DNA of 32,000 nucleotides from an uncultured Opitutales bacterium (GCA_934691225.1 CAKUSQ010000002.1:27372-59371); one strand, 5' to 3'. Counted from the first letter of the stretch, positions 5,321 through 32,000 are shown. A program made the numbers and translations. The notes: generated from the letters alone by a model not told the origin.

Positions 5321-5395
5321 GGCACGGTAGCCAAGTGGTAAGGCAGGAGTCTGCAAAACTTCTATACGTCGGTTCAATTCCGACCCGTGCCTCCA
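5321..5395 (+). tRNA. tRNA-Cys (anticodon GCA), CCA encoded
   Basis: Cloverleaf folded by hand. Acceptor GGCACGG/CCGTGCC; D arm GCCA..AGGC with the A13:A22 mismatch typical of tRNA-Cys. Anticodon stem GGAGT/ACTTC with loop CT-GCA-AA. T arm GTCGG-TTCAATT-CCGAC. Discriminator U73, then CCA. Confidence 0.95.
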
Positions 5396-6054: not shown

Positions 6055-8208
6055 TTACAAAGTACCCCACGAAAAGTTTCCTGTTTCCTTTTTCCACAAG
6101 TTAGCATCGTCGATAAATATAAGATGTTTTTTAGCACGGGTACAGGCTACATAAAACAAACGTTGAAGTTCACGTTTTTGAGAAAGTATGCGATCTTGAT
6201 TTAAAATGTGTTCATACTTATGCCAAAGAATATGGTTGTTATAAAGCAAAGGATAACGGGGCGGTGCATGACGAATAGGACGGTAAAAAAAAGGAAGAAT
6301 TACGGTATCCCATTCTAAACCCTTGGCTTTATGGCAAGTGTAGCACTGGATAGAATGGGTATTGAGTTGAGGTTCCGAATTGATTGCTGAAGTTAAATAA
6401 GGTCGTAGGTGTTGTTCCAAAGAGATCCAAGATCCATGCAAATTTTGAGTTTGGAATGTTGTATTTAAAAGAATATCAAAAGCATCTGAATCGGTGGGAT
6501 TAGGTGAGCATTTATCTTTAAAAAATTCTATTATTTTTATGATTCCTTCCCATAAGGACATTTGCATAACCTCTTGTCGCAATTGAAATAATATTTGCAG
6601 GATATTAGAAATGTCATCTTTTAATAAAGTTGCGCAAGCGATTTGAAATTCATTTTCATAGTCAGTTAGTGCGTGTGTTGGAATGCAAAAAGTTCTTTCT
6701 AGCATACCTGCAAGCTCGAAGCTGTCATTAGGAAAATTAATTAAATGAATAAATGTTAAAACATTACAAAAAAATGGATTTGTTCGTCCAGTGATGTTAG
6801 ATGAGTAGAGTTGTGTTAACCAGCCGTGTTGATTTAAGTAAGAACTTATCTCGTTAAGCCAATCTTTGCGAGGTGCAAGTATGCAAATATTAGAAAGTTC
6901 AGTTGGATATGCCTTTAAATGTGCTTTTAATATATTTGATAGTTGTTCGAGTTCATAAGATTTGACATCTACGGACGATGTTGGTTTCTGAATAGGAATG
7001 ATTTGAAAGGTACCTATCGTTTGTGCAGCTGATATCAAAGGTACAAATCTAACTTGTTTTTTATCAATCTCAGGGCACAGAAGTGTAGGAAATTTTCTGT
7101 TAAGCATAGAAACGATTGCTTCAGGGCAGCGAAACGTTTTTGAGAAGATAAGTTCTGTACAGGTTTTATGTTCAACGAGAGTTTTATGTGCATCTAAATA
7201 ATAATTTACATCGGCTCGCGAGCTATAAATAGCTTGCTGAGGGTCACCTACCATTGAAAAACGATTGCATTTATTGAGATTAACTAACGTTTGTAAATAT
7301 TGAAATTGATAAGGATCGGTATCTTGGGCTTCATCCAATAAAATTGAGATAGGTGTTTGCTCGAAAAATTGTTTAACGTCAGGTTTAGAAAGGTTACATT
7401 GAGCTAAATAAATTAAGTCCGTATGTTTTAAAAATCCTTGTTGGACACGAAATTCGTAATAACGTTTTGATAAAATTTTAGCTAAAAGAAGTGCTTCTGT
7501 TTCCAGCTGTTTGAAAAGAGGCTCAAACGTTTTATAATAAACCTGTTTAAAATTTTCACCACCTACAAGGCATTCCGGTAAGGGTAATGGCATATCCGTC
7601 GCATAATCCTTTTCCCATTGTTTTAAACTTGATTTTATGTAACCAATGGCTGTTTTATTACGAGGTTCTGGATTATAACCATAAATAGGTGATAAATCAA
7701 GACTTACCCTGTGAAATGGTTCTTTAGGGATTTCAAAACTTGTAACAGGTAGTTCAAAATGATCGCATAAAATATCTAGGTCGACAAAACGCAAAATATG
7801 AGCAAAATGCTTATAAATGGGATCATTGATAACCAGTGTGCTTAAAAACTTATTTTTTAGTGACGTATCTTCTTGTAAGACTTCATAGCGTATTTGTGGA
7901 TCAAATTGCTGAATATGTCGCCAACATAAGCTGTGGATGGTTCCAAAAAAGCTTTGGGAAAATAAATATTCAAATTGAGAAAAATTAGGATGTTTTTGTA
8001 AACGATTTTTTACTCGCGTACGCAACGTTTCAGCAGCTTTCTTGGTGTAAGTGATGACATACAAACCACGCAACATTTCAGGAGCTTTATCAGCCATGTT
8101 GTAGATCCTTTCAGTGATAGCGTAGGTTTTACCAACGCCTGCTGGAGCTATAACTGAAAAATTACGATCGATACAATGACAAAAAAGCTCTCGTTGTTGC
8201 TGATCCAT
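6055..8208 (-). CDS. UvrD/Rep/RecB-type superfamily 1 DNA helicase (no nuclease domain)
   Basis: Walker A VIAPAGVGKTY, motif II LLDEAQDTDPYQF, motif III MVGDPQQAIY, motif V/VI CHKAKGLEWDTVILPF and FYVACTRAKKHLIF. The protein ends ~20 aa after motif VI. Confidence 0.8.
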   Translation of the reverse strand: MDQQQRELFCHCIDRNFSVIAPAGVGKTYAITERIYNMADKAPEMLRGLYVITYTKKAAETLRTRVKNRLQKHPNFSQFEYLFSQSFFGTIHSLCWRHIQQFDPQIRYEVLQEDTSLKNKFLSTLVINDPIYKHFAHILRFVDLDILCDHFELPVTSFEIPKEPFHRVSLDLSPIYGYNPEPRNKTAIGYIKSSLKQWEKDYATDMPLPLPECLVGGENFKQVYYKTFEPLFKQLETEALLLAKILSKRYYEFRVQQGFLKHTDLIYLAQCNLSKPDVKQFFEQTPISILLDEAQDTDPYQFQYLQTLVNLNKCNRFSMVGDPQQAIYSSRADVNYYLDAHKTLVEHKTCTELIFSKTFRCPEAIVSMLNRKFPTLLCPEIDKKQVRFVPLISAAQTIGTFQIIPIQKPTSSVDVKSYELEQLSNILKAHLKAYPTELSNICILAPRKDWLNEISSYLNQHGWLTQLYSSNITGRTNPFFCNVLTFIHLINFPNDSFELAGMLERTFCIPTHALTDYENEFQIACATLLKDDISNILQILFQLRQEVMQMSLWEGIIKIIEFFKDKCSPNPTDSDAFDILLNTTFQTQNLHGSWISLEQHLRPYLTSAINSEPQLNTHSIQCYTCHKAKGLEWDTVILPFFYRPIRHAPPRYPLLYNNHILWHKYEHILNQDRILSQKRELQRLFYVACTRAKKHLIFIDDANLWKKETGNFSWGTL

Positions 8209-12698: not shown

Positions 12699-14015
12699 AT
12701 GTTTGAGGTTTTACCCGGATTTAGAGATTTTACTCCAGCAGCCTGTGCTGTACGCAATGCTATTTTTACAAAATGGCGTTCTACAGCTCGTATTTTTAAT
12801 TTTGAAGAATTTGATGGTCCTGTTTTAGAATCTTTAGAACTTTTTACAAAAAAATCAGGAGAAGAAATCACCGAACAATTATTTAATTTTGAAGATAAAG
12901 GTGGGCGGCAAATTGCGTTGCGTCCAGAAATGACACCTTCATTGGTTCGAATTTTAGGAAAAAATTTGGCTGTTTTAAAAAAACCTACCAAATGGTTTAA
13001 TATTACAGAAAATTTTCGTTATGAACGTCCACAAAAAGGTCGGTTGCGTTCTTTTTATCAGTTTAATGCTGATATTATAGGTGAAGAAACTTTTTCGGCA
13101 GATGCTGAGTTGATTGCTCTAGCTATTCAAAGTTTTAAGAATTTTGGACTTACACGCGAACATTTTTACGTGCGTTTAAGTGATCGTCAGTTATGGATGT
13201 TGTGGTTGCAAGGTTTCGGTATAAAAGATTTTGAGCTAGCTCAAAAGGTGTTAGCGGTTTGCGATAAATTGGAACGAAAACCATGCCAGGTTATTGAGGA
13301 TGATTTGTCAAAAATTTTACCAGAAAGTATTTCACCGGCTGTATTTTATAAATTGACGCAAAGGCTGAGATCCTCTGAAACGTTAACGGAAATTCGAACA
13401 TGCTTTCAAGAGTTGATGGAATGGAAGGCTGTTACAGAGGTTTTAGAACATCGTTTAGTTGAATTTGAACGTTTATTGCAACGTTTACAAGCATTGCAGT
13501 GCGATGAGTATGTTTCTATCGATTTAAATATCGTTCGTGGTTTAGCTTATTATACAGGATTTGTGTTTGAGGTCTTTGAAGTAGGGGATCAAGGACGAGC
13601 ACTTGCAGGTGGAGGACGTTACGATCAGTTGTTTGAAAAATTGACTGGGCATGCAATGCCTGCAGTTGGATTTGCCGCGGGTGATGTTACTTTAACCGAT
13701 ATATTAGAAAAAAATCGTTTGTTGCCTGCGGTGTCCACGGGTGTGGATGTTTTTGTTATTTTCGATGAAATCATGCAAAATCAAGCACTTCAATGGGCAC
13801 AGAATTTTCGTTGTGCTGGCTATATAACAAGTTATCATTTAGGTGAAGTAAAAAGTATAACCAAGCAATTGAAAAAAGCGTTTTCAGAAGGTGCTAGAAA
13901 CATTGTTATTTTTACCCAAGAAGCTGTTATGAATGGGAAAGCTCAGGTGAGGTATACAATGGATAAGACAGAGACAACAGTGAATATTTCAGAGCTTTTG
14001 CAAGTTATACGCTAG
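12699..14015 (+). CDS. hisS: Histidine--tRNA ligase
   Basis: Class II motifs LRPEMTPS, FRYERPQKGRLRSFYQFNADIIG and AGGGRYD; 438 aa. Confidence 0.95.
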   Translation: MFEVLPGFRDFTPAACAVRNAIFTKWRSTARIFNFEEFDGPVLESLELFTKKSGEEITEQLFNFEDKGGRQIALRPEMTPSLVRILGKNLAVLKKPTKWFNITENFRYERPQKGRLRSFYQFNADIIGEETFSADAELIALAIQSFKNFGLTREHFYVRLSDRQLWMLWLQGFGIKDFELAQKVLAVCDKLERKPCQVIEDDLSKILPESISPAVFYKLTQRLRSSETLTEIRTCFQELMEWKAVTEVLEHRLVEFERLLQRLQALQCDEYVSIDLNIVRGLAYYTGFVFEVFEVGDQGRALAGGGRYDQLFEKLTGHAMPAVGFAAGDVTLTDILEKNRLLPAVSTGVDVFVIFDEIMQNQALQWAQNFRCAGYITSYHLGEVKSITKQLKKAFSEGARNIVIFTQEAVMNGKAQVRYTMDKTETTVNISELLQVIR

Positions 14016-14087
14016 ATGATTACGGAAGTTTAAAGCATAAGTAATTAATATTAGAGCGGAAATTTCTTTTTAAAGTTTAGTAAAATT

Positions 14088-14116
14088 TTGACTTTCTGAG
14101 AATTTTTTCTTAAACT
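14088..14116 (+). promoter_or_regulatory. Putative sigma70-type promoter (TTGACT-17 nt-TAAACT) for the LysM gene
   Basis: The -10 element ends 7 nt before ATG 14124, implying a leaderless or near-leaderless transcript. Confidence 0.3.
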
Positions 14117-14123
14117 TATCTAT

Positions 14124-15047
14124 ATGCGTTTACTTACGAGTTACTTATCGGCTTCTTTATTAATTTTTTCGGTTCAAGCAGCACCTGTATTATCGAATTC
14201 ACCGCATTCACCTTACCGTCAGCTTCGAACATTAATGGAAGATATGAATGGTTTGAAGGAAGAAATTCAAGAATTGAAGAGTGAAAAAACCTTGTTAAAT
14301 AATGTACTTGAAACAGTATCGCAGGAAGCTCAACATCGGAATTTGGCATTTGAACAGTTAACTTCTGAAAATGAGGCTTTAAAGGATACGCTTCAACAAT
14401 TGACGAAGGATTATGAAGCGTTGAAATCGAACTTAGTAGCTTTGGAAGAAAATCAGAAAGGTTTATTGGAAAATTCTGCGTTAGAGTCTGTAAAAGAGCA
14501 GTTAAAGAGCGCAAATGAAAATGTTAGCCATTTGTCGCAATGGAAAGAAGACCGTGAGAAATTCCTGAAAGAACTTCAATTAAAATTGCCTAATATTAAT
14601 AAATTAAGTCAAGAACTGTGTCATATTCAAACTAATACTGAGGATTTTATAAGAGTTTCTTACGAGGAAATTTGCAATAAGATTCAAAGTTTAGAAAGAG
14701 ATATCGATAAAGTAACTTCTGCGAATGCAAAAGCTAAAAGCAATGATTTTCAATTCCAATTGAGTGCTTTAAAAAAGGAAATTACTGATAAATGCAAGGC
14801 AATGTGTCTTTCAACGCTCAATCAAGCGAATGATCGTTTACAAAGTTTAGCACAACAAATGCAAACAAATTTTGATTGTTTACGTGAAAAAAGTTATATC
14901 AAACACATTGTTTTAGCAGGAGAATCTTTAAGTTCGATTGCCAATCGTTATCAGTCTTCGGTGTCGCAGATTTTGGCAGCTAATCACTTACAAAATTCAA
15001 AAAATGTAAAAGTAGGTGATATGATTTGGATTCCTAAAAATTTTTAA
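14124..15047 (+). CDS. Secreted coiled-coil protein with C-terminal LysM peptidoglycan-binding domain
   Basis: Signal peptide MRLLTSYLSASLLIFSVQAAP, then ~200 aa of heptad-like E/K/L/Q-rich sequence. C-terminal LysM: HIVLAGESLSSIANRYQSSVSQILAANHL...VKVGDMIWIP. Confidence 0.8.
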   Translation: MRLLTSYLSASLLIFSVQAAPVLSNSPHSPYRQLRTLMEDMNGLKEEIQELKSEKTLLNNVLETVSQEAQHRNLAFEQLTSENEALKDTLQQLTKDYEALKSNLVALEENQKGLLENSALESVKEQLKSANENVSHLSQWKEDREKFLKELQLKLPNINKLSQELCHIQTNTEDFIRVSYEEICNKIQSLERDIDKVTSANAKAKSNDFQFQLSALKKEITDKCKAMCLSTLNQANDRLQSLAQQMQTNFDCLREKSYIKHIVLAGESLSSIANRYQSSVSQILAANHLQNSKNVKVGDMIWIPKNF

Positions 15048-15421
15048 TTAGTTAGCTTCAAGACATAGGTTATTAGGCATTTTTTTTGTACAAGGCTAAA
15101 AAATTGAATGTAATGGAGGTTAGAACTGTCTTTTTTTACAGAAATTTTAAAAGTAGCTGAGGGATCAAAATCTTTTTTGAAATAACGTTCCTTAGTGATT
15201 GCATCATGATAAGACCACCAAATTCCTTTGACTTCTTGATTATTTTGCAAAAACCACTCGAATGCATCTATGTAAGTGTGTAAAATTTTTTCCTCTTCAA
15301 GTTGAATATGTTTTTGTTGTTTTAAGGTTTTTAAATGAATAACCACAACTAGGCAGACTGAAAAAATCATGAGACTTAACATGAATTCCAGCAGACTGAA
15401 CCCACAAACATTATTTTTCAT
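15044..15421 (-). CDS. Prepilin-type (type IV pilin/pseudopilin-like) protein
   Basis: Class III signal MKNNVCG|FSLLEFMLSLMIFSV: Gly at -1, Phe at +1, Glu at +5, then a hydrophobic helix. 125 aa. Its ATG overlaps the stop of the FtsZ-like gene. Confidence 0.65.
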   Translation of the reverse strand: MKNNVCGFSLLEFMLSLMIFSVCLVVVIHLKTLKQQKHIQLEEEKILHTYIDAFEWFLQNNQEVKGIWWSYHDAITKERYFKKDFDPSATFKISVKKDSSNLHYIQFFSLVQKKCLITYVLKLTN

Positions 15422-16548
15422 GGTTCTAACTTAAGCCCTAAACGTAAATAAGTAGGGGTATCCCAAAAAGATTCGATGCCTTGACCTTCGAAATCAAATT
15501 GAATTTGAACGTGATTTTGTTCAGATGATGTTTGTTTTTTACTTCGATAGCGAACTGTCTTTAGATTCATTTTACTGTAAGAGAGTAAAATAAAAATTTT
15601 GGCTTCCTTTTCTCCTGATAAATGCGAATGGCAAACGTTGAGTAGGGTTAAATCGGGAATGCCTAAGAAACTTTGCAGTTCGTAATTTAAGTTTTTTAAC
15701 TCTGTTAGCGCGATATCATGGCTTAAATTTGTGTAAACAAATGCATGTTGTGAAGGTATATTTTCTACGTGAACTTTTAATGCAGGGCAGTTCATCGCTG
15801 ACTGAAGTGCGACTTCTACCGCTTTTTCACCTTTACCTTCGCCGTATCCCCAGCAGACCGCATCAGGTTTGCCAGAAAAATGTTTAATGAAATCATTTAA
15901 ATTGCATGAAAAGGCTCCCGTTTCAGTTTGAGTTAAACTTGAGAAAAAAGATTGTAGCAGTTGGCTTAATAAATGATTTCCGGCTGCAAAAGCTTCTTTG
16001 ATGGTTGCAGTGTTGGGTAATGTTTGAAACAGAATATCGTTGTAAAAGGGTACAACTAAGTCAGCTAAACTGTGCAATGTTTTTAATTGAATTTGAGCAC
16101 GAATTCCTTTGTTTTTCCCTTCAAAAGAAAAAGGTATGATCGGAATAACCAGTACAAATGCGCCTGTTTGAATTGCTTTTTGCACTGTTGCGTTCAGCAT
16201 TCCACATCCAGAACCACCGCTTAATCCTACTAGTAACACAAGTACATCGAGCTTTTGGCAAAAATTTTCAACGAAATTATCTTCTTTAGCAAAAGATTCC
16301 TTGATGAGAGTTTCATCTCCGCCAGAACTGAATCCGCGCAAAATATTTTTTGCAAAACAGTATTTGGGTAAATTGGAGGATAAACTTTCTAAACAACGTA
16401 GGTCTGTGTCAACTGCTAGACAAAGATCTGTTATGTAAGTGTTTTGTGAAAAAAAATAATTAAGAGCTCGACAAGCAGCACTACCTAAGGCAAGAAATTT
16501 TATTCGTGCACCAGGATTAACAGTAGATTCTTCAAATAATTCCTCCAC
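15418..16548 (-). CDS. Highly divergent FtsZ/tubulin-family protein
   Basis: GTG start. Full-length by-eye colinearity with FtsZ: LAVDTDLRCL, VGLSGGSGCG (tubulin signature), IIPFSFEGKNKG, VPFYNDIL, NLNDFIKHF (T7 region), GYGEGKGEKAVEVALQSAMNCPAL, and the C-terminal DTPTYLR tail. Confidence 0.7.
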   Translation of the reverse strand: MEELFEESTVNPGARIKFLALGSAACRALNYFFSQNTYITDLCLAVDTDLRCLESLSSNLPKYCFAKNILRGFSSGGDETLIKESFAKEDNFVENFCQKLDVLVLLVGLSGGSGCGMLNATVQKAIQTGAFVLVIPIIPFSFEGKNKGIRAQIQLKTLHSLADLVVPFYNDILFQTLPNTATIKEAFAAGNHLLSQLLQSFFSSLTQTETGAFSCNLNDFIKHFSGKPDAVCWGYGEGKGEKAVEVALQSAMNCPALKVHVENIPSQHAFVYTNLSHDIALTELKNLNYELQSFLGIPDLTLLNVCHSHLSGEKEAKIFILLSYSKMNLKTVRYRSKKQTSSEQNHVQIQFDFEGQGIESFWDTPTYLRLGLKLEP

Positions 16549-16579
16549 ATACTAATAAAATCTTAATTTTTTAAAAATG

Positions 16580-18040
16580 TCAACGATAGATCTTTTGCCC
16601 TAAAAATTTCATATTTTTGATGCAGCTCGGTTTTGCAATAAATAATGAGAAAAAGAACAATAAAGTGATAAAAACCGTAAAAGGTATCGTTAGTGTAAAG
16701 CAAGCAAAAGGTAATTTTTCTAAATATTCAACCGACATTAAAAGTATAGCAATACAATGGCTAGCTATTATATTGATTAAAGGATGTAATATTTGAATGA
16801 AAGTTGCACAAAACCAAGTTGTGATGCCTAAAATAACTATAAAACTGGCTAAAGGTATCAAAAATAAGTTAGCTATGAATGCCCAAGGTGTAAATAAATT
16901 CCAGTAATAGATAGAAAATAAACTGCTTACTACGCTTGCACTTAATGAGATTATGCACGAAGTTTTCAGTTTGTAGTAACGATCGATGTTTTTATTTATA
17001 TAAGCGGTTAGTGGTATTCCAAGGTATAAAATGCTCGCTACAACTCCATAGGAAAGTTGAAAGCCAACGTCCCAAAGTTCAAATGGGTTAAAAAAGAGTG
17101 TTGTGCCAATGGTATTAAAAAAAGCTCCTTGAATGTCGATTGGACGAGAAAGTAATTGTGCGCACAAAATGAAGAAAACCATTAAAGAAGCACGTAAAGT
17201 GGATGGGCTAAATCCAACGATAGATGCATAAAAAAACACGCCAGTTCCACTTAAAATAATTCGAAGTATTTTAGGAAAACGAAGTAATTTGCAGATGAAA
17301 AACAAAAATGTGCTAACGACACCTACATGTAGACCGCTAACGGCAAACAGATGCATCGTTCCGGTGTAAAAAAAATGTTGCAACTGATGACTTTCAAGGG
17401 TTTCTTTTTTACCCATTAGAATAGCTCTGTAAATATTTGTGTATGTTTTATCTTTTAAGCTAAGTGTTTCAGAAAAGAACTTACGTTGTTCTTGTAAAAA
17501 TGTAGGAGATGCATAGAGGTCTACCGATAATTTTGCGTACGAAGCATGATGACGTACACCGCGAGACCATAAGTAAAAAGAAAAGTTGTTTGTGACATTA
17601 AAAGGGGGCCGTAAAGGCATAAGTTTCCCTGATAAACGATACGTAAGGTTGTCCTTTAAACAAATGGGATGCTTAGTGTTTATGTGCAAATATACGTTTT
17701 CTTGCCGACCTTCCGGAAGCTCAACCTTTCCAATGCCACCAATTCGCCCTTTATGCGTTCGAAAAATTTTATCAAATCGAAAGGTGCATTCGTGAATTTT
17801 ATGCGGTGCATCCAAGTATTTTTCACTATTTATCATGTGTAATGCAGGATTTATACTTAGAAGTGCACATATGAAAAATTTAAATGATAAAAGTTTTATA
17901 GAGTTAACTTTTATAAAAAACAATGTGAATAAGATGTAAATAACCCAAGTGATTAAAGAGGCATGTGTTAAATAGCAAAACGTACCTATAAGTATAAAGA
18001 TACAAATAAAACTAAAATAACACATTGGGTATTGTTGCAC
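16580..18040 (-). CDS. comEC: DNA internalisation channel ComEC/Rec2 (DUF4131 + competence domain, no metallo-beta-lactamase domain)
   Basis: 486-aa polytopic membrane protein with the FYTGTMHLFAVSGLHVGVV competence-domain motif and an N-terminal OB-like segment. It ends before any HxHxDH MBL motif. Confidence 0.85.
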   Translation of the reverse strand: MQQYPMCYFSFICIFILIGTFCYLTHASLITWVIYILFTLFFIKVNSIKLLSFKFFICALLSINPALHMINSEKYLDAPHKIHECTFRFDKIFRTHKGRIGGIGKVELPEGRQENVYLHINTKHPICLKDNLTYRLSGKLMPLRPPFNVTNNFSFYLWSRGVRHHASYAKLSVDLYASPTFLQEQRKFFSETLSLKDKTYTNIYRAILMGKKETLESHQLQHFFYTGTMHLFAVSGLHVGVVSTFLFFICKLLRFPKILRIILSGTGVFFYASIVGFSPSTLRASLMVFFILCAQLLSRPIDIQGAFFNTIGTTLFFNPFELWDVGFQLSYGVVASILYLGIPLTAYINKNIDRYYKLKTSCIISLSASVVSSLFSIYYWNLFTPWAFIANLFLIPLASFIVILGITTWFCATFIQILHPLINIIASHCIAILLMSVEYLEKLPFACFTLTIPFTVFITLLFFFSLFIAKPSCIKNMKFLGQKIYR

Positions 18041-18047
18041 TGAATAA

Positions 18048-18788
18048 TTAGTGTGTTGATTTAAATTCTAGAATGCATGCTTTTTTTAATAATGATTGCG
18101 GCAGCAATTCTAATTGTATTTGTTCTGATTGAATGTGTAGATTGACAGATCGTTGAAATTGTTTGTTTTTTAGAGTACAATTATAATAACCATCTTTGGG
18201 TATTAACTCACAATGATGCTTAAATATGCAATGTTCATCTACATGACCAATGCATTGATAGGGCAATCCTAACAGTGCATTAGCTTCTTCAATAAAACCT
18301 TTTAATAAAACTTGTCGGATGCGTGAACTGCAAATTCGTTCGTTAGCAAATTTTAAATGTTTGAATACTTGTAATTCTATAGTACCGTCTTTCTGACAAA
18401 GCTGGTTTAATGTGGTGGTATCTCCGCAACGATTATGCCCAAAATGGAAATCTTCCCCTACGTACAAACATTTTAAATTAGGGAAAAGTCGTTTTAGATA
18501 AGCAAAGAATTTTTCTGGTAAATACTGTGACCAGGCTTCTGTAAATTTTTTGATAAAAACATAATCACAACCCAGTTTTTTTAATAACCAGTAACGTTGT
18601 TGAATGGGATAAATAAGTTGAGGTGCATCGGCTAAATGCAAGATTTTCTTAGGATGCGGATGAAATGTTAAAGCTCCTGCCCAAGCATTTGTGGCACGTG
18701 CATTGCGAATGGCTTCACCTATTAAATATCTATGGCCATTATGCACCCCATCGAAAACACCTATAGCTAAGTGAAGAGGTTTTAACAT
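18048..18788 (-). CDS. ribF: FAD synthetase (FMN adenylyltransferase) RibF with a shortened, degenerate riboflavin-kinase domain
   Basis: AIGVFDGVHNGHRYLI, LTFHPHPKKIL, YVGEDFHFGHNRCGD and SSRIRQ. Only ~75 aa follow the LLGLPY linker, and the GRxxGFPTAN motif is absent. Confidence 0.8.
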   Translation of the reverse strand: MLKPLHLAIGVFDGVHNGHRYLIGEAIRNARATNAWAGALTFHPHPKKILHLADAPQLIYPIQQRYWLLKKLGCDYVFIKKFTEAWSQYLPEKFFAYLKRLFPNLKCLYVGEDFHFGHNRCGDTTTLNQLCQKDGTIELQVFKHLKFANERICSSRIRQVLLKGFIEEANALLGLPYQCIGHVDEHCIFKHHCELIPKDGYYNCTLKNKQFQRSVNLHIQSEQIQLELLPQSLLKKACILEFKSTH

Positions 18789-18791
18789 ATA

Positions 18792-19562
18792 TTAAGATTT
18801 TAGCAATTGGTAATTTGCATACGGAATGATGTAGGGTTTTAAACTCTCTATAGAATTTTTCCCTAATATATCATTTAAATCCATTGCGTTTTCAATAGAA
18901 AAATGGCCGCTTTTGATTCTTCTTAATCCAGCTAAATGTCCGCCGCATCCTAATTTTTGTCCTAAATCATGCGCTAATGAACGTATATAAGTACCTTTAG
19001 AACATCTTACATGAAAGTGTGCATTAGGATTATCATGTTGGACTAAGTTAAATTTTTCAATTGATATAAAATTAGGTTCACGCGCGATATCTCGACCTTT
19101 TCTAGCTAACTTATACAGAGGAACCCCCGCATGTTTTTTAGCTGAAAACATGGGTGGATTTTGATATTGATCTCCTAAAAAAGTTTGCATACAGGTTTGA
19201 ATTAAATCGGTATTTAATCCATCTGTAGGGTGCGTTTCTGTTATTTCTCCTTCGCGATCGTAAGTGGATGTTTCTGTACCAAGCTGAATTATGCCTGTGT
19301 ACTCTTTAATTCCACACATGAGCTGTTGAGATAGTTTTGTTGCTTTACCGAGCACCACTATTAAGAGCCCTGTGGCCAATGGATCTAAAGTTCCTGCATG
19401 ACCTAATTTTAAAATTCCAAAGTGATGTTTTAAACGTCGAATGACGTCAAACGATGAACATCCGTAAGGTTTGTCGATGAGCAAGATTCCATCTACTTGG
19501 ACTTGCGTTTTAGCTCGTTGCAAAGGTGTAGAGATGTTAGGGGAGCAATGAATCCAAATCAT
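18792..19562 (-). CDS. truB: tRNA pseudouridine(55) synthase
   Basis: GILLIDKPYGCSSFDV, LGHAGTLDPLATGLL, PPMFSAKK, CSKGTYIRSLAHDLG. The start may instead be the in-frame TTG at 19523, which removes the overlap with the upstream gene. Confidence 0.93.
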   Translation of the reverse strand: MIWIHCSPNISTPLQRAKTQVQVDGILLIDKPYGCSSFDVIRRLKHHFGILKLGHAGTLDPLATGLLIVVLGKATKLSQQLMCGIKEYTGIIQLGTETSTYDREGEITETHPTDGLNTDLIQTCMQTFLGDQYQNPPMFSAKKHAGVPLYKLARKGRDIAREPNFISIEKFNLVQHDNPNAHFHVRCSKGTYIRSLAHDLGQKLGCGGHLAGLRRIKSGHFSIENAMDLNDILGKNSIESLKPYIIPYANYQLLKS

Positions 19563-20493
19563 GAATAAATTCCTTAAATGAAAAATTATTTAAATCACAT
19601 TGAAAGCCTGCGGCGCATATATGTCCACCACCGTTCCATTTTTTTGCCACAACATTGACAGGAATATTAGGTTGATTAGAACGTAAACTGCCTTTGACGA
19701 ACGTTTTATTGTATTCTATAAAAGCGGCAATTTTTGCATTTTTTAACGTTAACAATTGGTTAACAAAACCTTCTGTATCGTTATGGTTTGTGTTGGTATC
19801 TGCATAATCTTGAAACGAAAGTGTTGAAACAACAATAGCGTCTTGGGAGTAAATTTCGACATGATCCAAAAATAAACTTTGGAGTTTCAATTGCGCTTGA
19901 GTTCTGTTGTTGAAGATTCGCTGTATAATTTTACAGGGTTCAACCCCGGCGCGTACAAGTTGTTCAGCACATTCGAACGTGTGTTGTGTGACATTGTTGT
20001 GCGAAAAATTACCAGAATCTGTTAACAGCCCTAGATATAAGGATTCATTAATAAAAGTATTATTGAACCGGTAACCATTTTGACTGAGCAAAAATGTCAA
20101 AATTTCACATGTTGAAGATGCTGCTGGTTCTACGCAGCTAAATTGAGCCCATTTGTCTTCTTTTGGATGATGGTCGATAACTAATAAAAAACGACATTGC
20201 CTAAGCGATTCAGAAACGCGAGAAGGTTTTCCGCAATCAACCGCAATCCAGTAAGATTTTGCTTCAACATCGATATCTTTTACATTTTTATTAGGTGAAT
20301 TATTTAGAAATGTTCTAAAAATTTCAGGCGTATCTTCGGTTACAACAGCGTAAGCTTGATATCCTAACGTGTTTAAATAAACTGCCAATGCAATTTGGCT
20401 CCCTATAGCATCACCGTCTGGACGTTCATGTCCAACGATGTAGATAGGTAAATGCTTATCACAAATTTTTAGACTTTGAGATAAAAAAGCCAT
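19537..20493 (-). CDS. nrnA: DHH/DHHA1 phosphoesterase (NrnA-like oligoribonuclease/pAp phosphatase)
   Basis: GHERPDGDAIGS, VIDHHP, and DHHA1 GGGHICAAGF. Confidence 0.8.
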   Translation of the reverse strand: MAFLSQSLKICDKHLPIYIVGHERPDGDAIGSQIALAVYLNTLGYQAYAVVTEDTPEIFRTFLNNSPNKNVKDIDVEAKSYWIAVDCGKPSRVSESLRQCRFLLVIDHHPKEDKWAQFSCVEPAASSTCEILTFLLSQNGYRFNNTFINESLYLGLLTDSGNFSHNNVTQHTFECAEQLVRAGVEPCKIIQRIFNNRTQAQLKLQSLFLDHVEIYSQDAIVVSTLSFQDYADTNTNHNDTEGFVNQLLTLKNAKIAAFIEYNKTFVKGSLRSNQPNIPVNVVAKKWNGGGHICAAGFQCDLNNFSFKEFIHDLDSLLP

Positions 20494-20522
20494 AAAATTA
20501 AGAAAAAGATTTTTGCATCAAA

Positions 20523-21239
20523 TCACAATGTTTTATTTACAAAATTTCTTCCTTTGTTTTCAATGCATTCATTTACAATAATGCTGTTAGGGATGATAAC
20601 AATAGTGTCATTTTCAGTTAGAAGTCGTGTTGATCGTAGTCCTATCGATATAACTTTTCCGCGAGCTCGCGTTCCAATTAGAATCCAATCGCCTTCTTTG
20701 AATGGATGATCCAGTATGATCGAAACTGTAGCCCACAGATTAGAGATGGTATTTTGTGATGCAAAAGCTAAAGCTGCTCCACCTATCCCTAATGTTGTTA
20801 GAAGACCTCCAATCGAATACCCTAAATTATTAGCGGCTACAACAATACCTAAACTTACAAAACCAAACAGTACAAGTTTTCGCATTAACGGATAGAAGTC
20901 TGCCATGTTTTTGATAAGTTTTCCAAAGCAAATCAAGCAGACCAGAACAATAAGATCACCTAGAATTAAACAGAGCAAAAAGCTTGAAAGGGCTTTGCAG
21001 ATTTGGCCTATAGGACCTAGTTGTAATGCATGTGCTCCAAGCCATACAACGACGAATGTCCAAAGAAGGTATATTTTTAGTCTGAGACTTATGAAAAGTT
21101 TTTGTAAATAATTAGGTGAAAGCGATAATTTATGAATCCATGTACGTAATTTCTTAACGCCAATAATGAGAAATACGTGACCAATTGCATAAGCAATTAA
21201 GTAAAAAATAATCGTGTACAGATCAAAGTTTTTTATCAT
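20523..21239 (-). CDS. Small-conductance mechanosensitive channel family protein (short, MscS-like)
   Basis: Pore helix/beta-domain pattern GGAALAFASQNTISNLWATVSIILDHPFKEGDWILIG..GKVISIGLRSTRLLTENDTIVIIPNS. The protein ends soon after the beta domain. Confidence 0.75.
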   Translation of the reverse strand: MIKNFDLYTIIFYLIAYAIGHVFLIIGVKKLRTWIHKLSLSPNYLQKLFISLRLKIYLLWTFVVVWLGAHALQLGPIGQICKALSSFLLCLILGDLIVLVCLICFGKLIKNMADFYPLMRKLVLFGFVSLGIVVAANNLGYSIGGLLTTLGIGGAALAFASQNTISNLWATVSIILDHPFKEGDWILIGTRARGKVISIGLRSTRLLTENDTIVIIPNSIIVNECIENKGRNFVNKTL

Positions 21240-21876
21240 GTGCTTGTTCCGTTAATTTTTTGGCTTCTTCAGGACATACAGCACCTCCAGAAATAATAAG
21301 CTTAATCGCCTCACCGACGGTCATGTCTAAAATGATCAATTTTTCTTCAGGAACCATAATTAAAAAACCTGATGTTGGATTAGGTGTTGTTGGTACGAAA
21401 ACATTGCAAACATTTTCTTTGGTTTTTTCTTGAGTTTCACCTCTTGAACGGTTTGTTAAAAAACCGATTGAATACATGCCATCGCTAGGAAACTTCACGA
21501 GCACAGCTTTTTGAAATACCGCTTGTTTGTTTTTTCCAATGGTGTCAACAATTTGCTTTACGGTATTATAAATTGTGTTAATGAAAGGGATATTTCGAAT
21601 TAAACTTTCAATGAAATTTAAGAAAGTTTTACCTAAGAAAAATTTCGAAAGCCATCCGAAAAGCGTAATCATTGCAATCACAATAAATATAGACATTAGA
21701 CTGGCTATTAATTCTACCCATTGTTTTTCGAACAGATGGCTCCATGGACTGAAGAACAGAACGCTTGCCGGTTGACCAATTTTTTCTAACAGAAATTTTA
21801 TAACCACAAAAGTAACACCTAAGGGCATTAAAACGACAAGTCCTGTAACGAAAGAATTTTTCAAATTTTTCAGCAT
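21223..21876 (-). CDS. DUF502-family membrane protein
   Basis: Two N-terminal TM helices and the VFVPTTPNPTSGFLIMVP signature. Confidence 0.8.
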   Translation of the reverse strand: MLKNLKNSFVTGLVVLMPLGVTFVVIKFLLEKIGQPASVLFFSPWSHLFEKQWVELIASLMSIFIVIAMITLFGWLSKFFLGKTFLNFIESLIRNIPFINTIYNTVKQIVDTIGKNKQAVFQKAVLVKFPSDGMYSIGFLTNRSRGETQEKTKENVCNVFVPTTPNPTSGFLIMVPEEKLIILDMTVGEAIKLIISGGAVCPEEAKKLTEQAHDKKL

Positions 21877-21953
21877 TGGCTTAAACTCTAGCGCAGATTA
21901 AGAAGTAAAGACAAGAAAATTTTTACGATAAACTATTTTATGTACAAAAAATT

Positions 21954-22724
21954 TTAAAAATTAAAAAATTTGCGAGTATTTTCAGAAGTAACGCGAACGC
22001 ATTCATCATAGGAAATATTTTTTATTTCTGCTAATTTTTGTGCTATCCAATGCACGTTTTCAGGAGAGTTAACTTTTCCTCGGTGAGGAGCCGGGGATAG
22101 ATAAGGACTGTCAGTTTCTATTAAAATTTGATTTAATGGTACAAGTTGAGCTGTTTCAACGGTATGTCCTGGTTTTTTAAACGTTAGGATACCAGAGTAT
22201 GAAACAAAACCACCATTTTCAAGAATCCAATTGACACTCTTTACATCTTCAACAAAACAGTGAAACATAGCGCGATGAAGGTCAAATTTGGTGTAAATTA
22301 AAATTTCTTTTAAAATGGTAAAAGCATCGCGGCAATGAATAACAATGGGTAGGTGATATTTTTGTGCCAATCGAATTTGTCGCTCGAAAATTTTCATTTG
22401 TAATTTCATGCGTTCAATATTCTCAGTTTGAAAAATACTGTGAAAATCAAGTCCTATTTCACCTATAGCTACACCTTGAGTTACATAGGTTTCAAGCGCA
22501 TTTAACTCTTCCTGCCAATGATCCGAAATTTCCAAAGGATGAATGCCATAACATACTTTTATGTTAGAATATTTTTCAGACAATGAATGATAAAAATGCC
22601 AGTCATGAGATTTCGCGGCTGAAGTAACCACATAAGACATTGAGTGATTGGAAAGTTGTTCTAAAAAAGCGCTTGCGCTTTCAATAGATAAATGATCCAA
22701 ATGACAGTGAGCATCGATTAGCAT
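21954..22724 (-). CDS. tatD: TatD-family metal-dependent hydrolase/DNase
   Basis: MLIDAHCHLD start (internal Met preferred over the track start at 22760), plus EIGLDF, VIHCRDA and ETDSPYL. Confidence 0.9.
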   Translation of the reverse strand: MLIDAHCHLDHLSIESASAFLEQLSNHSMSYVVTSAAKSHDWHFYHSLSEKYSNIKVCYGIHPLEISDHWQEELNALETYVTQGVAIGEIGLDFHSIFQTENIERMKLQMKIFERQIRLAQKYHLPIVIHCRDAFTILKEILIYTKFDLHRAMFHCFVEDVKSVNWILENGGFVSYSGILTFKKPGHTVETAQLVPLNQILIETDSPYLSPAPHRGKVNSPENVHWIAQKLAEIKNISYDECVRVTSENTRKFFNF

Positions 22725-28607: not shown

Positions 28608-29939
28608 TTAACCTGCAACCAAATTTTCTAAATGATAGCAGTGGCTACCTTTTAAATAGATACAGTCAATGTTTAGTTGCGCCAAAAATGCGGTTACTTC
28701 ATTTGAATTTTCAAACGTTTTGATTTGTTGTGTTTGGGCCCCTTGTTGCTTTAAACCATCTGCTAAAGCTTCTTTAAATGTACCAATACAAATATAAATA
28801 TCGGTAGGACGAATGTGAAATTTTTTGGCTAAATTTTTATGAAAATTGATGCTATTTTCTCCCAATTCCATCATACTTCCTAGACAGTAACAAATGGATT
28901 TTACATGAGGACATGTGCGATAAAAATGTTGAAGACTGTCATTAAAAGCAGCTGGATTGGCATTATAACAATCGATAAAAAAATGTTGGCCGTTTTTATG
29001 TTGCCAAACCCCTCGATTGGGTATGGGTTTTAATTGTTGCAGTCGTTCTTGAATGGTTAACGGCGAGATTCCTATGGTTAATGCATAGCCTATGGCCATA
29101 GCAAATGATTCTGCTGCACCATTTCCACATAAAGAAGGAATACTAAAAGTTTGGTTATTAATTTGTATGTCCCATCCATTGGGAGTTAAATCTAAATGGT
29201 AAGAAATTGTATTGTTGTTCGTTTGTATTTTCCCATTTACGTATTCATAGTATTTTCCGTTACATGTATAAAATTTCGACCAAGTTTTAGGAAAAAATGA
29301 ACTATGTTTAGCTGCATTTATCAATTTAAATTTTTCGTAACCGATGGATTTTATGGATGAAAAATTTTGAAGATGAACTGGATTTACATTAATCAAAATA
29401 GCGTCATCAGGAGATATTATTTTTGCTAAAATATCCATTTCACCAGGGGCGCTTATTCCAGTTTCAATGACTGCATATGAATGGATTTTTGGATCGATGC
29501 ATGTGATGGACAAAGGTATCCCTAAATGATTGTTAAAATTGCCTGGTGTTTTAAATGTGGATGGACCTAATAAGGTGGCTAAGATTTCTTTAAACGTGGT
29601 TTTTCCACAACTTCCTGTAATGGCAATGATGTGCGTATTTAAGGTTTTTCGATAATTTTCAGCAATATTTTGAAAAGCTTGAAGCGTGTTTTTTACAATC
29701 AATTGAGGGAGCAAACAATCGGGAATTTCTTTCTCAACAATAGCAGCACGTGCACCTTTATTATACGCTTCATTAACAAAAAGGTGACCATCGTTTGTTT
29801 TATTTTTTATAGCCAAAAAACAGTCGTTTGCATTTAACAATCTTGTGTCAAAACAAAAATTTTTAATATCAGAATGTGGTTTATTTAACCAATATCCTTG
29901 TGTCCATTTTTGCAATAAAATCGGATCAAATATTTTCAT
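28608..29939 (-). CDS. murF: UDP-N-acetylmuramoyl-tripeptide--D-alanyl-D-alanine ligase
   Basis: Mur ligase P-loop ITGSCGKTTFKE, 443 aa, immediately after murE with an ATGA overlap. Confidence 0.9.
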   Translation of the reverse strand: MKIFDPILLQKWTQGYWLNKPHSDIKNFCFDTRLLNANDCFLAIKNKTNDGHLFVNEAYNKGARAAIVEKEIPDCLLPQLIVKNTLQAFQNIAENYRKTLNTHIIAITGSCGKTTFKEILATLLGPSTFKTPGNFNNHLGIPLSITCIDPKIHSYAVIETGISAPGEMDILAKIISPDDAILINVNPVHLQNFSSIKSIGYEKFKLINAAKHSSFFPKTWSKFYTCNGKYYEYVNGKIQTNNNTISYHLDLTPNGWDIQINNQTFSIPSLCGNGAAESFAMAIGYALTIGISPLTIQERLQQLKPIPNRGVWQHKNGQHFFIDCYNANPAAFNDSLQHFYRTCPHVKSICYCLGSMMELGENSINFHKNLAKKFHIRPTDIYICIGTFKEALADGLKQQGAQTQQIKTFENSNEVTAFLAQLNIDCIYLKGSHCYHLENLVAG

Positions 29940-31486
29940 TTATTTTTTTGAATATTATCAAAAACTTCAACTACTTTTTTATCATCGAAAGGTAAGAAAT
30001 GACCATCAATTTCTTGATATTGTTCATGACCTTTACCTGCAATTAAAAGACAATCCCCAGGTTGACAATGGCGCAAAGCCGTACAGATAGCTTCAGCTCT
30101 ATCGACTATGAAATTTACATGGTTATTATTTGAAAATCCAGAACGTATATCATCAAAAATTTGTTCTTGTGATTCTGTTCGAGGATTATCACTTGTGACC
30201 CAAATTTGGTTTGCGTAGGTCTCTGCCACATGCGCCATTACAGGGCGTTTAGTGCGATCTCTATTGCCACCGCATCCAAATACGACGTTTAAATTTTTTG
30301 ATGTTAACCCTCGAAGCGTTTTTAGTACATTTTTTAAGGCTTCAGGCTTGTGTGCAAAATCGACAAAAATTTTTATGCCAAGGGAATTGAGTACTTCTTC
30401 TAGCCGTCCAGGAACCTGTGAAAATGTTGATAAAGCTGGCACAACGGTATTTAAATCATAGCCTTGTGCGTAGCATATTCCAAGAGCTGTTAAGCAATTA
30501 TAAACGTTAAATTGACCAAGTAAGGCAGTTTTTACAAGCCATTCCCCCGTGGGTGCTTTTAAAACGAAGGATGTACCTGTTAAATCTGTTTGCACTTGTG
30601 TTGCTTGCAGCATAGCTGGCGTATCGATTCCAATGGTAATCAATTTAATGGATGGAGAAATTTCCGATAAAAGGCGTTGTCCATAAGGATCATCTACATT
30701 AATAACAGCGTTTTTTAATCCGGATTGTAAAAACAACTGTTTCTTGGTTTGATAGTATGATTCCATGGTTTTATGGTAATCCAAATGTTCTAAACTTAAA
30801 TTTGTAAAAGCGGCTGTTTCAAATGTAAGTGATGCCGTTCGTTTTTGTTCAATGGCATGCGATGAAACTTCTAAAATGGCATTACGTTCGTGTGATTGTA
30901 CCATTTCATTAAGATAGCTGTTTAAGCTAAGTGCATCTGGAGTTGTTCTGGAAGCAGGGAGGATACGTCGGCCAAGATCATAATGCAGACTACCGATTAG
31001 TCCAGTGGTTTGTTTAAGAGAAGTTTGATATATGTGTCGTAATAGCCACGAAGTTGTTGTTTTACCACTGGTACCTGTAATGCCTACGAGTCGCAGTTTT
31101 TTGTCTGGTGTATTATAAAATTTATTCGATATTTGACTAACAGCTTCACGTATATTTTTTACTTGCACTTGAATGATGTTGTGCAATCGAGGAAACATTT
31201 TTTCGGTAACAATTACTTCAGCGCCCTTAGCAATCGCTTGTTCGATAAAATCGTTACCATCACAATGCATTCCTTCGATAGCGAAAAATAGTCCTTGAGG
31301 TTGTACGCATTGACTATGAATAGCTAGATGATTTATTAAGGGATTTATTTTAGGTCCTGAAATCTTTTGTACTGAAATGCCTCGCAGCAATGTTTTTAAA
31401 TCAATGGGAGTTGACATGAATTTAAGTAAAGGGAATGTGAGTGTTGTTACGGGTGAAGTGAAAATAGGAAGGGTGTTGTTGAGCAT
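29936..31486 (-). CDS. murE: UDP-N-acetylmuramoyl-L-alanyl-D-glutamate--2,6-diaminopimelate ligase
   Basis: GITGTSGKTTTSWLL, and a DNPRTE motif (DNPR is associated with meso-DAP specificity). The true start may be the internal Met at 31417 (MSTPIDLKTLL). Confidence 0.93.
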   Translation of the reverse strand: MLNNTLPIFTSPVTTLTFPLLKFMSTPIDLKTLLRGISVQKISGPKINPLINHLAIHSQCVQPQGLFFAIEGMHCDGNDFIEQAIAKGAEVIVTEKMFPRLHNIIQVQVKNIREAVSQISNKFYNTPDKKLRLVGITGTSGKTTTSWLLRHIYQTSLKQTTGLIGSLHYDLGRRILPASRTTPDALSLNSYLNEMVQSHERNAILEVSSHAIEQKRTASLTFETAAFTNLSLEHLDYHKTMESYYQTKKQLFLQSGLKNAVINVDDPYGQRLLSEISPSIKLITIGIDTPAMLQATQVQTDLTGTSFVLKAPTGEWLVKTALLGQFNVYNCLTALGICYAQGYDLNTVVPALSTFSQVPGRLEEVLNSLGIKIFVDFAHKPEALKNVLKTLRGLTSKNLNVVFGCGGNRDRTKRPVMAHVAETYANQIWVTSDNPRTESQEQIFDDIRSGFSNNNHVNFIVDRAEAICTALRHCQPGDCLLIAGKGHEQYQEIDGHFLPFDDKKVVEVFDNIQKNK

Positions 31487-31490
31487 AATG

Positions 31491-32000
31491 TTACAAAAGT
31501 TTAGGTTCAGGTTGAATTCCCATATAAGTGATTAAGTCTTCAGCTATTTCTTTAAAAATAGGAGCTGCAACAACAGAGCCGTACGCAGTACCTTGCGTTT
31601 TAGGAGAATCTACAGTAATTGTAATTTCTATTTGAGGATTTTGGTTTGGAAAAAATCCTGAAAAAGAAGCAATATGTTGATTGTGTGAGTAACGTCCTTG
31701 GATAATTTTTTGACTTGTTCCTGTTTTACCGGTAACATTGTAGTTAGGTATGTAAGCTTTAGAATGTTCGGATAATAACAACATCGCGCGCATAGTTTGT
31801 GACGTTGTGTTTTTAATAACTTGTCGACGCGGATGTGGCAGAAAACTTCGAATGATTTCTCCTTTTGTGTTGTAGATTCTATGGATCCATTGAGGATAAA
31901 ACAAAGTACCTCCATTAGCGATAGCCCCCATAGCGTAGTGCATTTGAAATAAAGAACAAGCTAAGCTATGTCCAATTGGAAGTCGCGTAATTGTTAAACC
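31491..32000 (-). CDS. ftsI: Penicillin-binding protein 3 / FtsI-type transpeptidase, C-terminal part; gene continues beyond the right window edge
   Basis: KTG motif in VTGKTGTSQK. I checked that the frame stays open from 31943 to position 32000 (…GLTITRLPIGHSLACSLFQMHYAMGAIANGG…). Position directly upstream of murE. Confidence 0.85.
   Translation of the reverse strand, partial: GLTITRLPIGHSLACSLFQMHYAMGAIANGGTLFYPQWIHRIYNTKGEIIRSFLPHPRRQVIKNTTSQTMRAMLLLSEHSKAYIPNYNVTGKTGTSQKIIQGRYSHNQHIASFSGFFPNQNPQIEITITVDSPKTQGTAYGSVVAAPIFKEIAEDLITYMGIQPEPKLL

Follow-up and report, generated by a model that had tools for sequence, protein, structure and literature searches.

A fast-evolving FtsZ gene overlapping a type IV pilin-like gene in gut-associated Opitutales

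We analysed a 32,000-nucleotide (nt) stretch of DNA from an uncultured Opitutales bacterium (GCA_934691225.1, CAKUSQ010000002.1:27372-59371), referred to here as the window, with attention to a gene encoding a 376-amino-acid (aa) FtsZ-like protein and to the type IV pilin-like gene that overlaps its end. Judged by its sequence, this gene is a very fast-evolving descendant of the division FtsZ of Opitutae (Verrucomicrobiota). Our favoured reading, to which we give an even chance of being correct, is that it encodes the lineage's own fast-evolving division FtsZ, tethered by its C-terminal peptide and translationally coupled with a lineage-specific pilin-like envelope protein. Divergent verrucomicrobial FtsZ has been described before (PMC1845146; PMC9871819; PMC12283558), and divergence as such is therefore already known; what appears to be new here is a pilin-coupled FtsZ encoded outside the division and cell wall (dcw) gene cluster. 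Our literature searches turned up neither a non-dcw FtsZ that is coupled with a pilin-like gene nor anything specific on peculiarities of Opitutales FtsZ. The two genes and their junction lie as follows.

15418..16548, minus strand: divergent FtsZ gene, 376 aa, GTG start (open reading frame [ORF] call)
15044..15421, minus strand: type IV pilin-like gene, 125 aa (ORF call)
15418..15421, minus strand: ATGA, in which the stop of the FtsZ gene overlaps the start of the pilin-like gene (sequence read directly)

Identity and descent of the FtsZ-like protein

By its profile matches and its predicted model, the 376-aa protein is a real two-domain FtsZ. It matches the Pfam Tubulin/FtsZ GTPase family (PF00091) with 52.2 bits (cut-off 33; E 1.2e-13), and a profile built from 17 family members matched FtsZ structures in the PDB over residues 11-330 (E 4e-36), with CetZ and TubZ far worse than FtsZ in the same search. 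The AlphaFold2 (AF2) model has a predicted local distance difference test score (pLDDT) of 78 and a target-normalised TM-score of ~0.87 to FtsZ structures. The protein is laid out as a GTPase domain, a C-terminal domain, a linker, and a C-terminal peptide; the linker (residues ~328-360) is predicted to be disordered, based on low pLDDT in the AF2 model, and is followed by a short helix at residues 366-369, as in the classic layout of FtsZ.

The C-terminal peptide of FtsZ binds membrane tethers and has the pattern D-[IV]-P-x-[FY]-L-R. In the window protein it spans residues 361-376, FWDTPTYLRLGLKLEP. From W362 onward, the motif WDTPTYLRxGLKL is invariant or nearly so among 42 homologues that share as little as 41% identity, and it aligns with DVPTYLR of Opitutae and with DIPAFLR of E. 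coli. Several nucleotide-binding signatures are also recognizable. The tubulin signature of the T4 loop, [SAG]GGTG[SAT]G, reads GL[SG]GG[TS]GSG in the family; Thr occupies the variable [TS] position in 36 of 42 sequences, and the window protein has the variant GGSGCG. The T5 (PF.FEG) and T6 (ND) motifs are kept.

We placed the family by an exhaustive hidden Markov model (HMM) search for FtsZ homologues over 1.84 billion representatives. Scores fall gradually from 598 to ~140 bits, passing through bridging sequences and reaching other FtsZs with no gap. The closest full-length outgroup consists of proteins of ~390-440 aa with the C terminus GEDLDVPTYLRRGIKI, and its named members, within the best 120 of 3114 matches, are annotated as 'cell division protein FtsZ' of Opitutaceae, Opitutus, and Nibricoccus. 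All three outgroup loci that we inspected (L024-L026) have the gene order ftsQ-ftsA-ftsZ. In a neighbour-joining tree, the family falls inside Opitutae FtsZ on a long branch, attached via the bridging sequences P0059, P0060, and P0062. Thus, based on the common C-terminal motifs and the nesting in the tree, the protein is a derived Opitutae FtsZ and not a member of the Tubulin_2 family.

The likeness to Opitutae division FtsZ extends to the two-domain fold, the short linker, the C-terminal D.PTYLR.G.K following Q..F.F, the GGTG.G signature, and the T5 and T6 motifs, which are present in both; the second Asp of T7 is already missing in the Opitutae proteins. Identity between the two groups is just 23-28%, T1 reads GVGGAG.N in Opitutae and LGSAACR here, and the N.D of T7 is not recognizable here. 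Pfam FtsZ_C finds no match in the window protein, and no ftsA precedes its gene. A pilin-like gene follows ftsZ here, whereas no pilin-like ORF was found after the canonical Opitutae ftsZ in L024-L026, nor after the bridging sequences P0059 and P0060.

Verrucomicrobial FtsZs have been reported to be among the most divergent bacterial FtsZs and to be phylogenetically unstable (PMC9871819, PMC12283558). Unlike the gene described here, the published examples are dcw-encoded, as is that of V. spinosum, whose FtsZ has a long essential C-terminal extension (PMC1845146; PMC9871819; PMC12283558). We also considered FtsZl-1 and FtsZl-2. According to the summary of Makarova and Koonin (2010) in PMC9871819, these are Tubulin_2 proteins with large extensions and without the C-terminal domain of FtsZ. 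They are likewise called 'FtsZ-like' and are likewise encoded outside the dcw cluster. We rejected this identity because the window protein matches PF00091, has the full FtsZ fold, and retains the C-terminal peptide.

An identical FtsZ-like protein is present in human-gut metagenome contigs of up to 847 kb. Related genes occur in human-gut, rumen, and termite-gut metagenome-assembled genomes (MAGs) that carry the labels Opitutales, Puniceicoccales, or Verrucomicrobia. Two more distant matches turned up in the searches. A protein on a Saccharibacteria contig of the candidate phyla radiation (CPR; L023 6001-6831) has 22% identity to the family, echoing the published grouping of a divergent CPR FtsZ copy with verrucomicrobial FtsZ (PMC9871819). 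In addition, a cluster of 730-860 aa proteins from assemblies of the green alga Closterium (P0061) scores 217 bits to the family profile, above most bacterial FtsZs; these may be plastid FtsZ or bacterial DNA in the assemblies.

The FtsZ/pilin-like pair and the pilin-like protein

To follow the locus in relatives, we used a set of 20 loci, 18 from GTDB representatives found by a scan with the family alignment and 2 from metagenome contigs. Ten window neighbours (hisS, the LysM gene, comEC, ribF, truB, nrnA, mscS, the clpX-like gene, tkt, and the pilin-like gene) were searched for by tblastn in the 18 GTDB loci, and the pilin-like gene was the only one to recur near the FtsZ gene. In 14 of the 20 loci (the window, L005-L009, L013, L016-L018, L021, L022, L032, and L033), the FtsZ gene is immediately followed by a homologous pilin-like ORF. 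The initial annotation had reported that the FtsZ-like stop overlaps the start of the 125-aa gene; we confirmed this junction as ATGA. Of the 10 junctions read in relatives, 9 likewise show an overlap, either ATGA or GTGA. At L021, where the junction lies beside masked sequence, the genes are adjacent with no overlap. The pair persists down to 45% FtsZ identity.

The surroundings of the pair differ from locus to locus. Upstream of the FtsZ gene lie a divergent yajC/secDF (L005), enolase (L006-L008), a tetratricopeptide repeat (TPR) protein gene on the opposite strand (L009), a tadA-like deaminase gene (L013, L016-L018, L020, and L032), fmt (L015), a divergent efflux operon (L033), or, in the termite clade, a CHASE2 cyclase gene. 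The genes beyond the pilin-like ORF also differ between loci. A divergent upstream gene leaves the pair standing alone as a bicistronic unit in both L005 and L033. In the neighbour-joining tree, pilin-bearing loci are found on both deep branches, and the loci lacking the pilin-like ORF are nested among them. Thus, the pair looks ancestral to the family, having been lost or moved once.

Rumen/gut clade II has a secretin gene (PF00263) on the other strand, at a distance of 3-5 kb upstream of the FtsZ/pilin-like pair (L032 4931-7237; also L017 and L018, at ~1.2-3.7 kb). A major facilitator superfamily (MFS) transporter gene and tadA separate it from the pair, and its presence may be a coincidence or a distant link to pili or secretion.

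The pilin-like protein begins with a canonical class III signal, predicted to be cleaved between MKNNVCG and FSLLE as first proposed, and a 21-residue hydrophobic stretch follows. It scores above the cut-offs of two prepilin signal families, N_methyl (24.6 bits, cut-off 21.2) and TIGR02532 (19.5 bits, cut-off 16.3). The same elements recur in 11 homologues. They have a short basic leader that ends in Gly, followed by F-[ST]-L-[LI]-E and then 21-24 hydrophobic residues; Glu +5 is present in 9 of the 11. The glutamate is replaced by Gly (GFTTLG) in L017 and L018, at 7125-7697 in both; the GTG starts of this subgroup are often missed by gene callers, leaving N-terminally truncated annotations. 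Within the clade, the pilin-like proteins are 125-190 aa long. The AF2 model (pLDDT 80) predicts a helix at residues 10-60 followed by a five-stranded sheet, a shape that resembles the 'lollipop' of pilins. The positive-inside rule is ambiguous, since basic residues stand on both flanks of the hydrophobic stretch.

These features recall minor pilins and pseudopilins (GspI/EpsI, ComGE-like), with which the protein shares a short basic leader with terminal Gly, the F-[ST]-L-[LI]-E motif, a hydrophobic helix, and a size of ~125 aa; its predicted fold, a long alpha-1 helix with a small antiparallel sheet, may correspond to theirs as well. It differs from them in that all curated equivalogs score below cut-off, including ComGE (25.6 bits, cut-off 49) and GspI (18.1 bits, cut-off 44). 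It also differs in being encoded with ftsZ instead of pilus or secretion genes, in having Gly for Glu +5 in the two loci named above, and in lacking a significant structural match.

A profile search of 5.8 billion proteins returned only 24 homologues of the pilin-like protein, several of them on contigs equal in size to those carrying FtsZ homologues. In the same search, no member of the family was detected in a pilus or secretion operon or outside genomes with this FtsZ. On this distribution, the pilin-like family appears to be lineage-specific and tied to this FtsZ.

A proposed division role and its alternatives

We propose that ftsZ left its ancestral ftsQ-ftsA-ftsZ position in a host-associated Opitutales clade of human gut, rumen, and termite gut, and that in most members of the clade it would now form a two-gene operon with the type IV pilin-like gene, joined by the [A/G]TGA overlap. 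The divergent FtsZ would still build the division ring and would be tethered by its C-terminal peptide, most likely to FtsA. Changes in its T1 and T7 loops would give it a changed, probably slower, GTP turnover. The pilin-like protein, made in a fixed ratio with FtsZ, would be a small accessory of the division site, located in the inner membrane or the periplasm, and not part of a DNA-uptake pilus. With pilin topology, its bulk would be periplasmic, so such an accessory is more plausible than a direct cytoplasmic FtsZ binder. The initial annotation had offered, as one of two hypotheses, a division FtsZ co-expressed with an envelope protein; we infer that this describes the locus far better than the other, a cytoskeletal element of a competence or secretion pseudopilus.

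Several observations weigh against the division reading. Where FtsZ has the glycine-rich T1 loop GxGGGGxN, the family has the conserved sequence LGS[ASC]ACR[AV]L, and the T7 motif NxDxxD is unrecognizable in the family, in a region where the alignment is ambiguous; with that ambiguity, D219 in the T7 region is D or E in 36 of 42 sequences. From the remodelled T1 and T7 loops it would follow that GTP binding is kept and turnover altered, and the changes could mean a function other than that of a treadmilling Z ring. The window protein reaches 72.4 bits in TIGR00065 (ftsZ), compared with a cut-off of 295.2, and PGAP labels one family member 'hypothetical protein.' No pilin-like ORF lies downstream in 6 of the 20 loci (five termite-gut genomes and L015), so the pilin-like gene is either dispensable or encoded elsewhere in some members. 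Foldseek found no significant match in the PDB for the pilin-like model; the best coherent one was GspI/EpsI, at E 0.86. In addition, pilin topology leaves only a leader of 5-10 residues in the cytoplasm, which makes a direct contact with FtsZ hard to picture. The main uncertainty is that the same genomes, which we viewed at these loci only, may carry a second, canonical FtsZ beside ftsA elsewhere.

If so, the protein described here could be a specialized FtsZ paralogue that works with a dedicated pilin-like partner in an envelope process other than division, such as positioning or scaffolding a surface structure. We consider this unlikely, although much of the evidence can be read in its favour: the protein has diverged strongly (~24% identity with canonical FtsZ), its T1 and T7 loops are altered, its partner gene is tightly conserved and lineage-specific, and the bridging sequences P0059 and P0060 are likewise outside a dcw context. 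Moreover, no ftsA, ftsQ, or ftsW was found within any locus of the family; a search of these loci for murG, ddl, and pilB was negative as well. Against it stands the near-invariant, division-type C-terminal peptide, which specialized FtsZ paralogues such as FtsZm are not known to carry. A weak further argument is that the named hits among the best 120 of 3114 matches include no canonical FtsZ of a named gut or termite Opitutales MAG.

The position of the gene does not favour a paralogue either, as the dcw cluster is broken up in this genome anyway. One fragment lies within the window, on the same strand as the FtsZ gene and 12 kb upstream of it.

28608..32000, minus strand: dcw fragment with the C-terminal part of ftsI, murE, and murF (Pfam)

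We extended the window by 10 kb on each side in search of further dcw genes (L028 and L031). One extension holds mraZ-mraW-ftsL-ftsI-murE-murF, followed directly by valS (L028 6641-12879), and the other holds mraY-murD beside topA, on the opposite strand and left of the window (L031 14438-16803). The cluster is thus in at least three pieces within ~50 kb, with ftsZ between the mraZ..murF and mraY-murD fragments. We did not see ftsW, murG, murC, ddl, ftsQ, or ftsA in the window and its 10-kb extensions. Because the cluster is fragmented in this genome, the non-dcw position of the FtsZ gene says little about its role.

Slightly harder to credit is that the FtsZ and pilin-like genes are merely co-transcribed, inherited neighbours, and that the latter encodes an ordinary minor pilin of a type II secretion system or type IV pilus. 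In favour of this, prepilin-type proteins are numerous in Verrucomicrobia, one clade has a secretin gene at a distance of 3-5 kb (L032), and the downstream pilin gene is absent from six loci. An overlap, once formed, is also hard to undo, and unrelated genes commonly share 4-nt overlaps in this genome. In the window, fliQ/fliR, lptE/rpe, clpX-like/tkt, and murE/murF are joined in this way, so ATGA adjacency from one genome alone carries little weight, a caveat that the initial annotation rightly raised. What such an account leaves unexplained is that all other neighbours are reshuffled while this junction is kept down to 45% FtsZ identity, and that the pilin-like family goes undetected outside FtsZ-bearing genomes and in pilus or secretion operons.

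The division reading could be taken one step further. FtsZ and the pilin-like protein might form a two-component module in which the latter represents a novel type of FtsZ accessory factor, such as a membrane-side partner or a subunit of the divisome, recruited when ftsZ left ftsA and alongside the remodelling of T1 and T7. We put this forward tentatively and think it improbable in this full form.

Bacterial division centres on FtsZ, whose partners are few in number and have been studied intensively. Departures from the standard division machinery are classically found in the PVC superphylum, to which Verrucomicrobia belong. Here, an FtsZ too diverged for annotation pipelines is encoded apart from ftsA and shares a conserved, predicted operon with a pilin-like gene. 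If the two proteins are functionally linked, the pilin-like protein would be a previously unknown kind of FtsZ-associated envelope protein, and the FtsZ itself would offer a natural example with remodelled GTPase loops. Surveys of 'FtsZ loss' among gut, rumen, and termite Verrucomicrobia MAGs would misscore these genomes.

The ComEC-like gene and the surrounding genes

Upstream of the FtsZ gene, the window carries a gene for a ComEC-like protein, and the string of three minus-strand genes is closed at its other end by a convergent gene.

16580..18040, minus strand: ComEC-like gene, 486 aa from GTG (ORF call)
16549..16579, minus strand: 31-nt, AT-rich spacer between comEC and the FtsZ gene, with no hairpin and no terminator-like site
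14124..15047, plus strand: convergent LysM/coiled-coil gene, encoding a signal peptide, a coiled coil, and a C-terminal LysM domain (7e-14)

The layout first described for this string was borne out: comEC ends at 16580, the FtsZ-like gene follows 31 nt on, and the convergent LysM/coiled-coil gene, whose 3' end shares 4 nt with that of the pilin-like gene, closes the string. In a scan of 14000-22000, the only terminator-like site was that at 20399-20384; the junctions of the three genes have none, also as described. Promoter-like sites in the same region numbered 25, compared with 29.7 expected in shuffled sequence, and none stood above chance.

The ComEC-like protein matches Pfam Competence (PF03772) with 173.7 bits (E 6.7e-51). 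This was the only Pfam family matched, and the protein has no hit to the metallo-beta-lactamase domain that full-length ComEC/Rec2 proteins include. Its score in TIGR00361 is 83.8 bits, compared with a cut-off of 190, and is thus under the ComEC/Rec2 equivalog threshold. The start of the gene is ambiguous between GTG at 18040, which gives 486 aa with extra hydrophobic N-terminal segments, and ATG at 17836, which gives 418 aa; gene callers choose the latter, leaving a 211-nt gap after ribF.

The initial annotation had joined comEC, the FtsZ-like gene, and the prepilin gene into one candidate module for DNA uptake. The gene neighbourhood proved syntenic only in part: the FtsZ-like/prepilin pair is retained in relatives, and the comEC linkage is not. 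Only in the window's own species does comEC lie upstream of the FtsZ gene; it is absent from that place in all other loci (~20). We rejected the linkage on the tblastn comparison described above; by the criterion set beforehand, gene order in relatives, the absence of comEC beside the FtsZ gene there refutes the three-gene module. As read from gene order, comEC is next to the FtsZ gene by chance, is a species-specific neighbour, and is outside the conserved unit. That the three products form a single competence or pseudopilus machine with the tubulin-family protein as a positioning element is thus very improbable, even though the genes share a strand, a 31-nt spacer, a 4-nt overlap, and terminator-free junctions, because the comEC adjacency is limited to this species, the ComEC-like protein is a Competence domain alone and below the equivalog cut-off, and neither the 32-kb window nor the 10-kb extensions contain comEA, pilB, pilC, or pilD. 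The results lend no support to a DNA-uptake machine assisted by a tubulin.

The LysM/coiled-coil gene was not found near the FtsZ gene at other loci by tblastn of the 18 GTDB loci. A multi-LysM protein gene adjoins ftsW in Opitutae dcw clusters (L024 11266-12321; L026 1-161), and the LysM protein of the window is a different one. An inversion splits the dcw cluster of L024 (1828-17215; P0117, GCA_048222815.1), with murG, murC/B, ftsQ, ftsA, and ftsZ facing ftsW, the LysM gene, murD, mraY, murF, and murE; this inversion indicates that dcw rearrangement is common in the class. In Nibricoccus (L026 11026-12735), a PilB/GspE-type ATPase gene (MshEN + T2SSE) is the third gene downstream of the dcw ftsZ, past obg and a 176-aa ORF.

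Elsewhere in the window, an Rfam scan identified tRNA-Cys (GCA) at 5321-5395 on the plus strand as the sole RNA gene. The genes fliQ, fliR, and flhB (Bac_export_3, _1, and _2) of the flagellar or type III export apparatus lie at 492-1564 on the minus strand and at L031 9732-11880, and in this gut Opitutales genome the set is adjoined by a STAS-domain gene.

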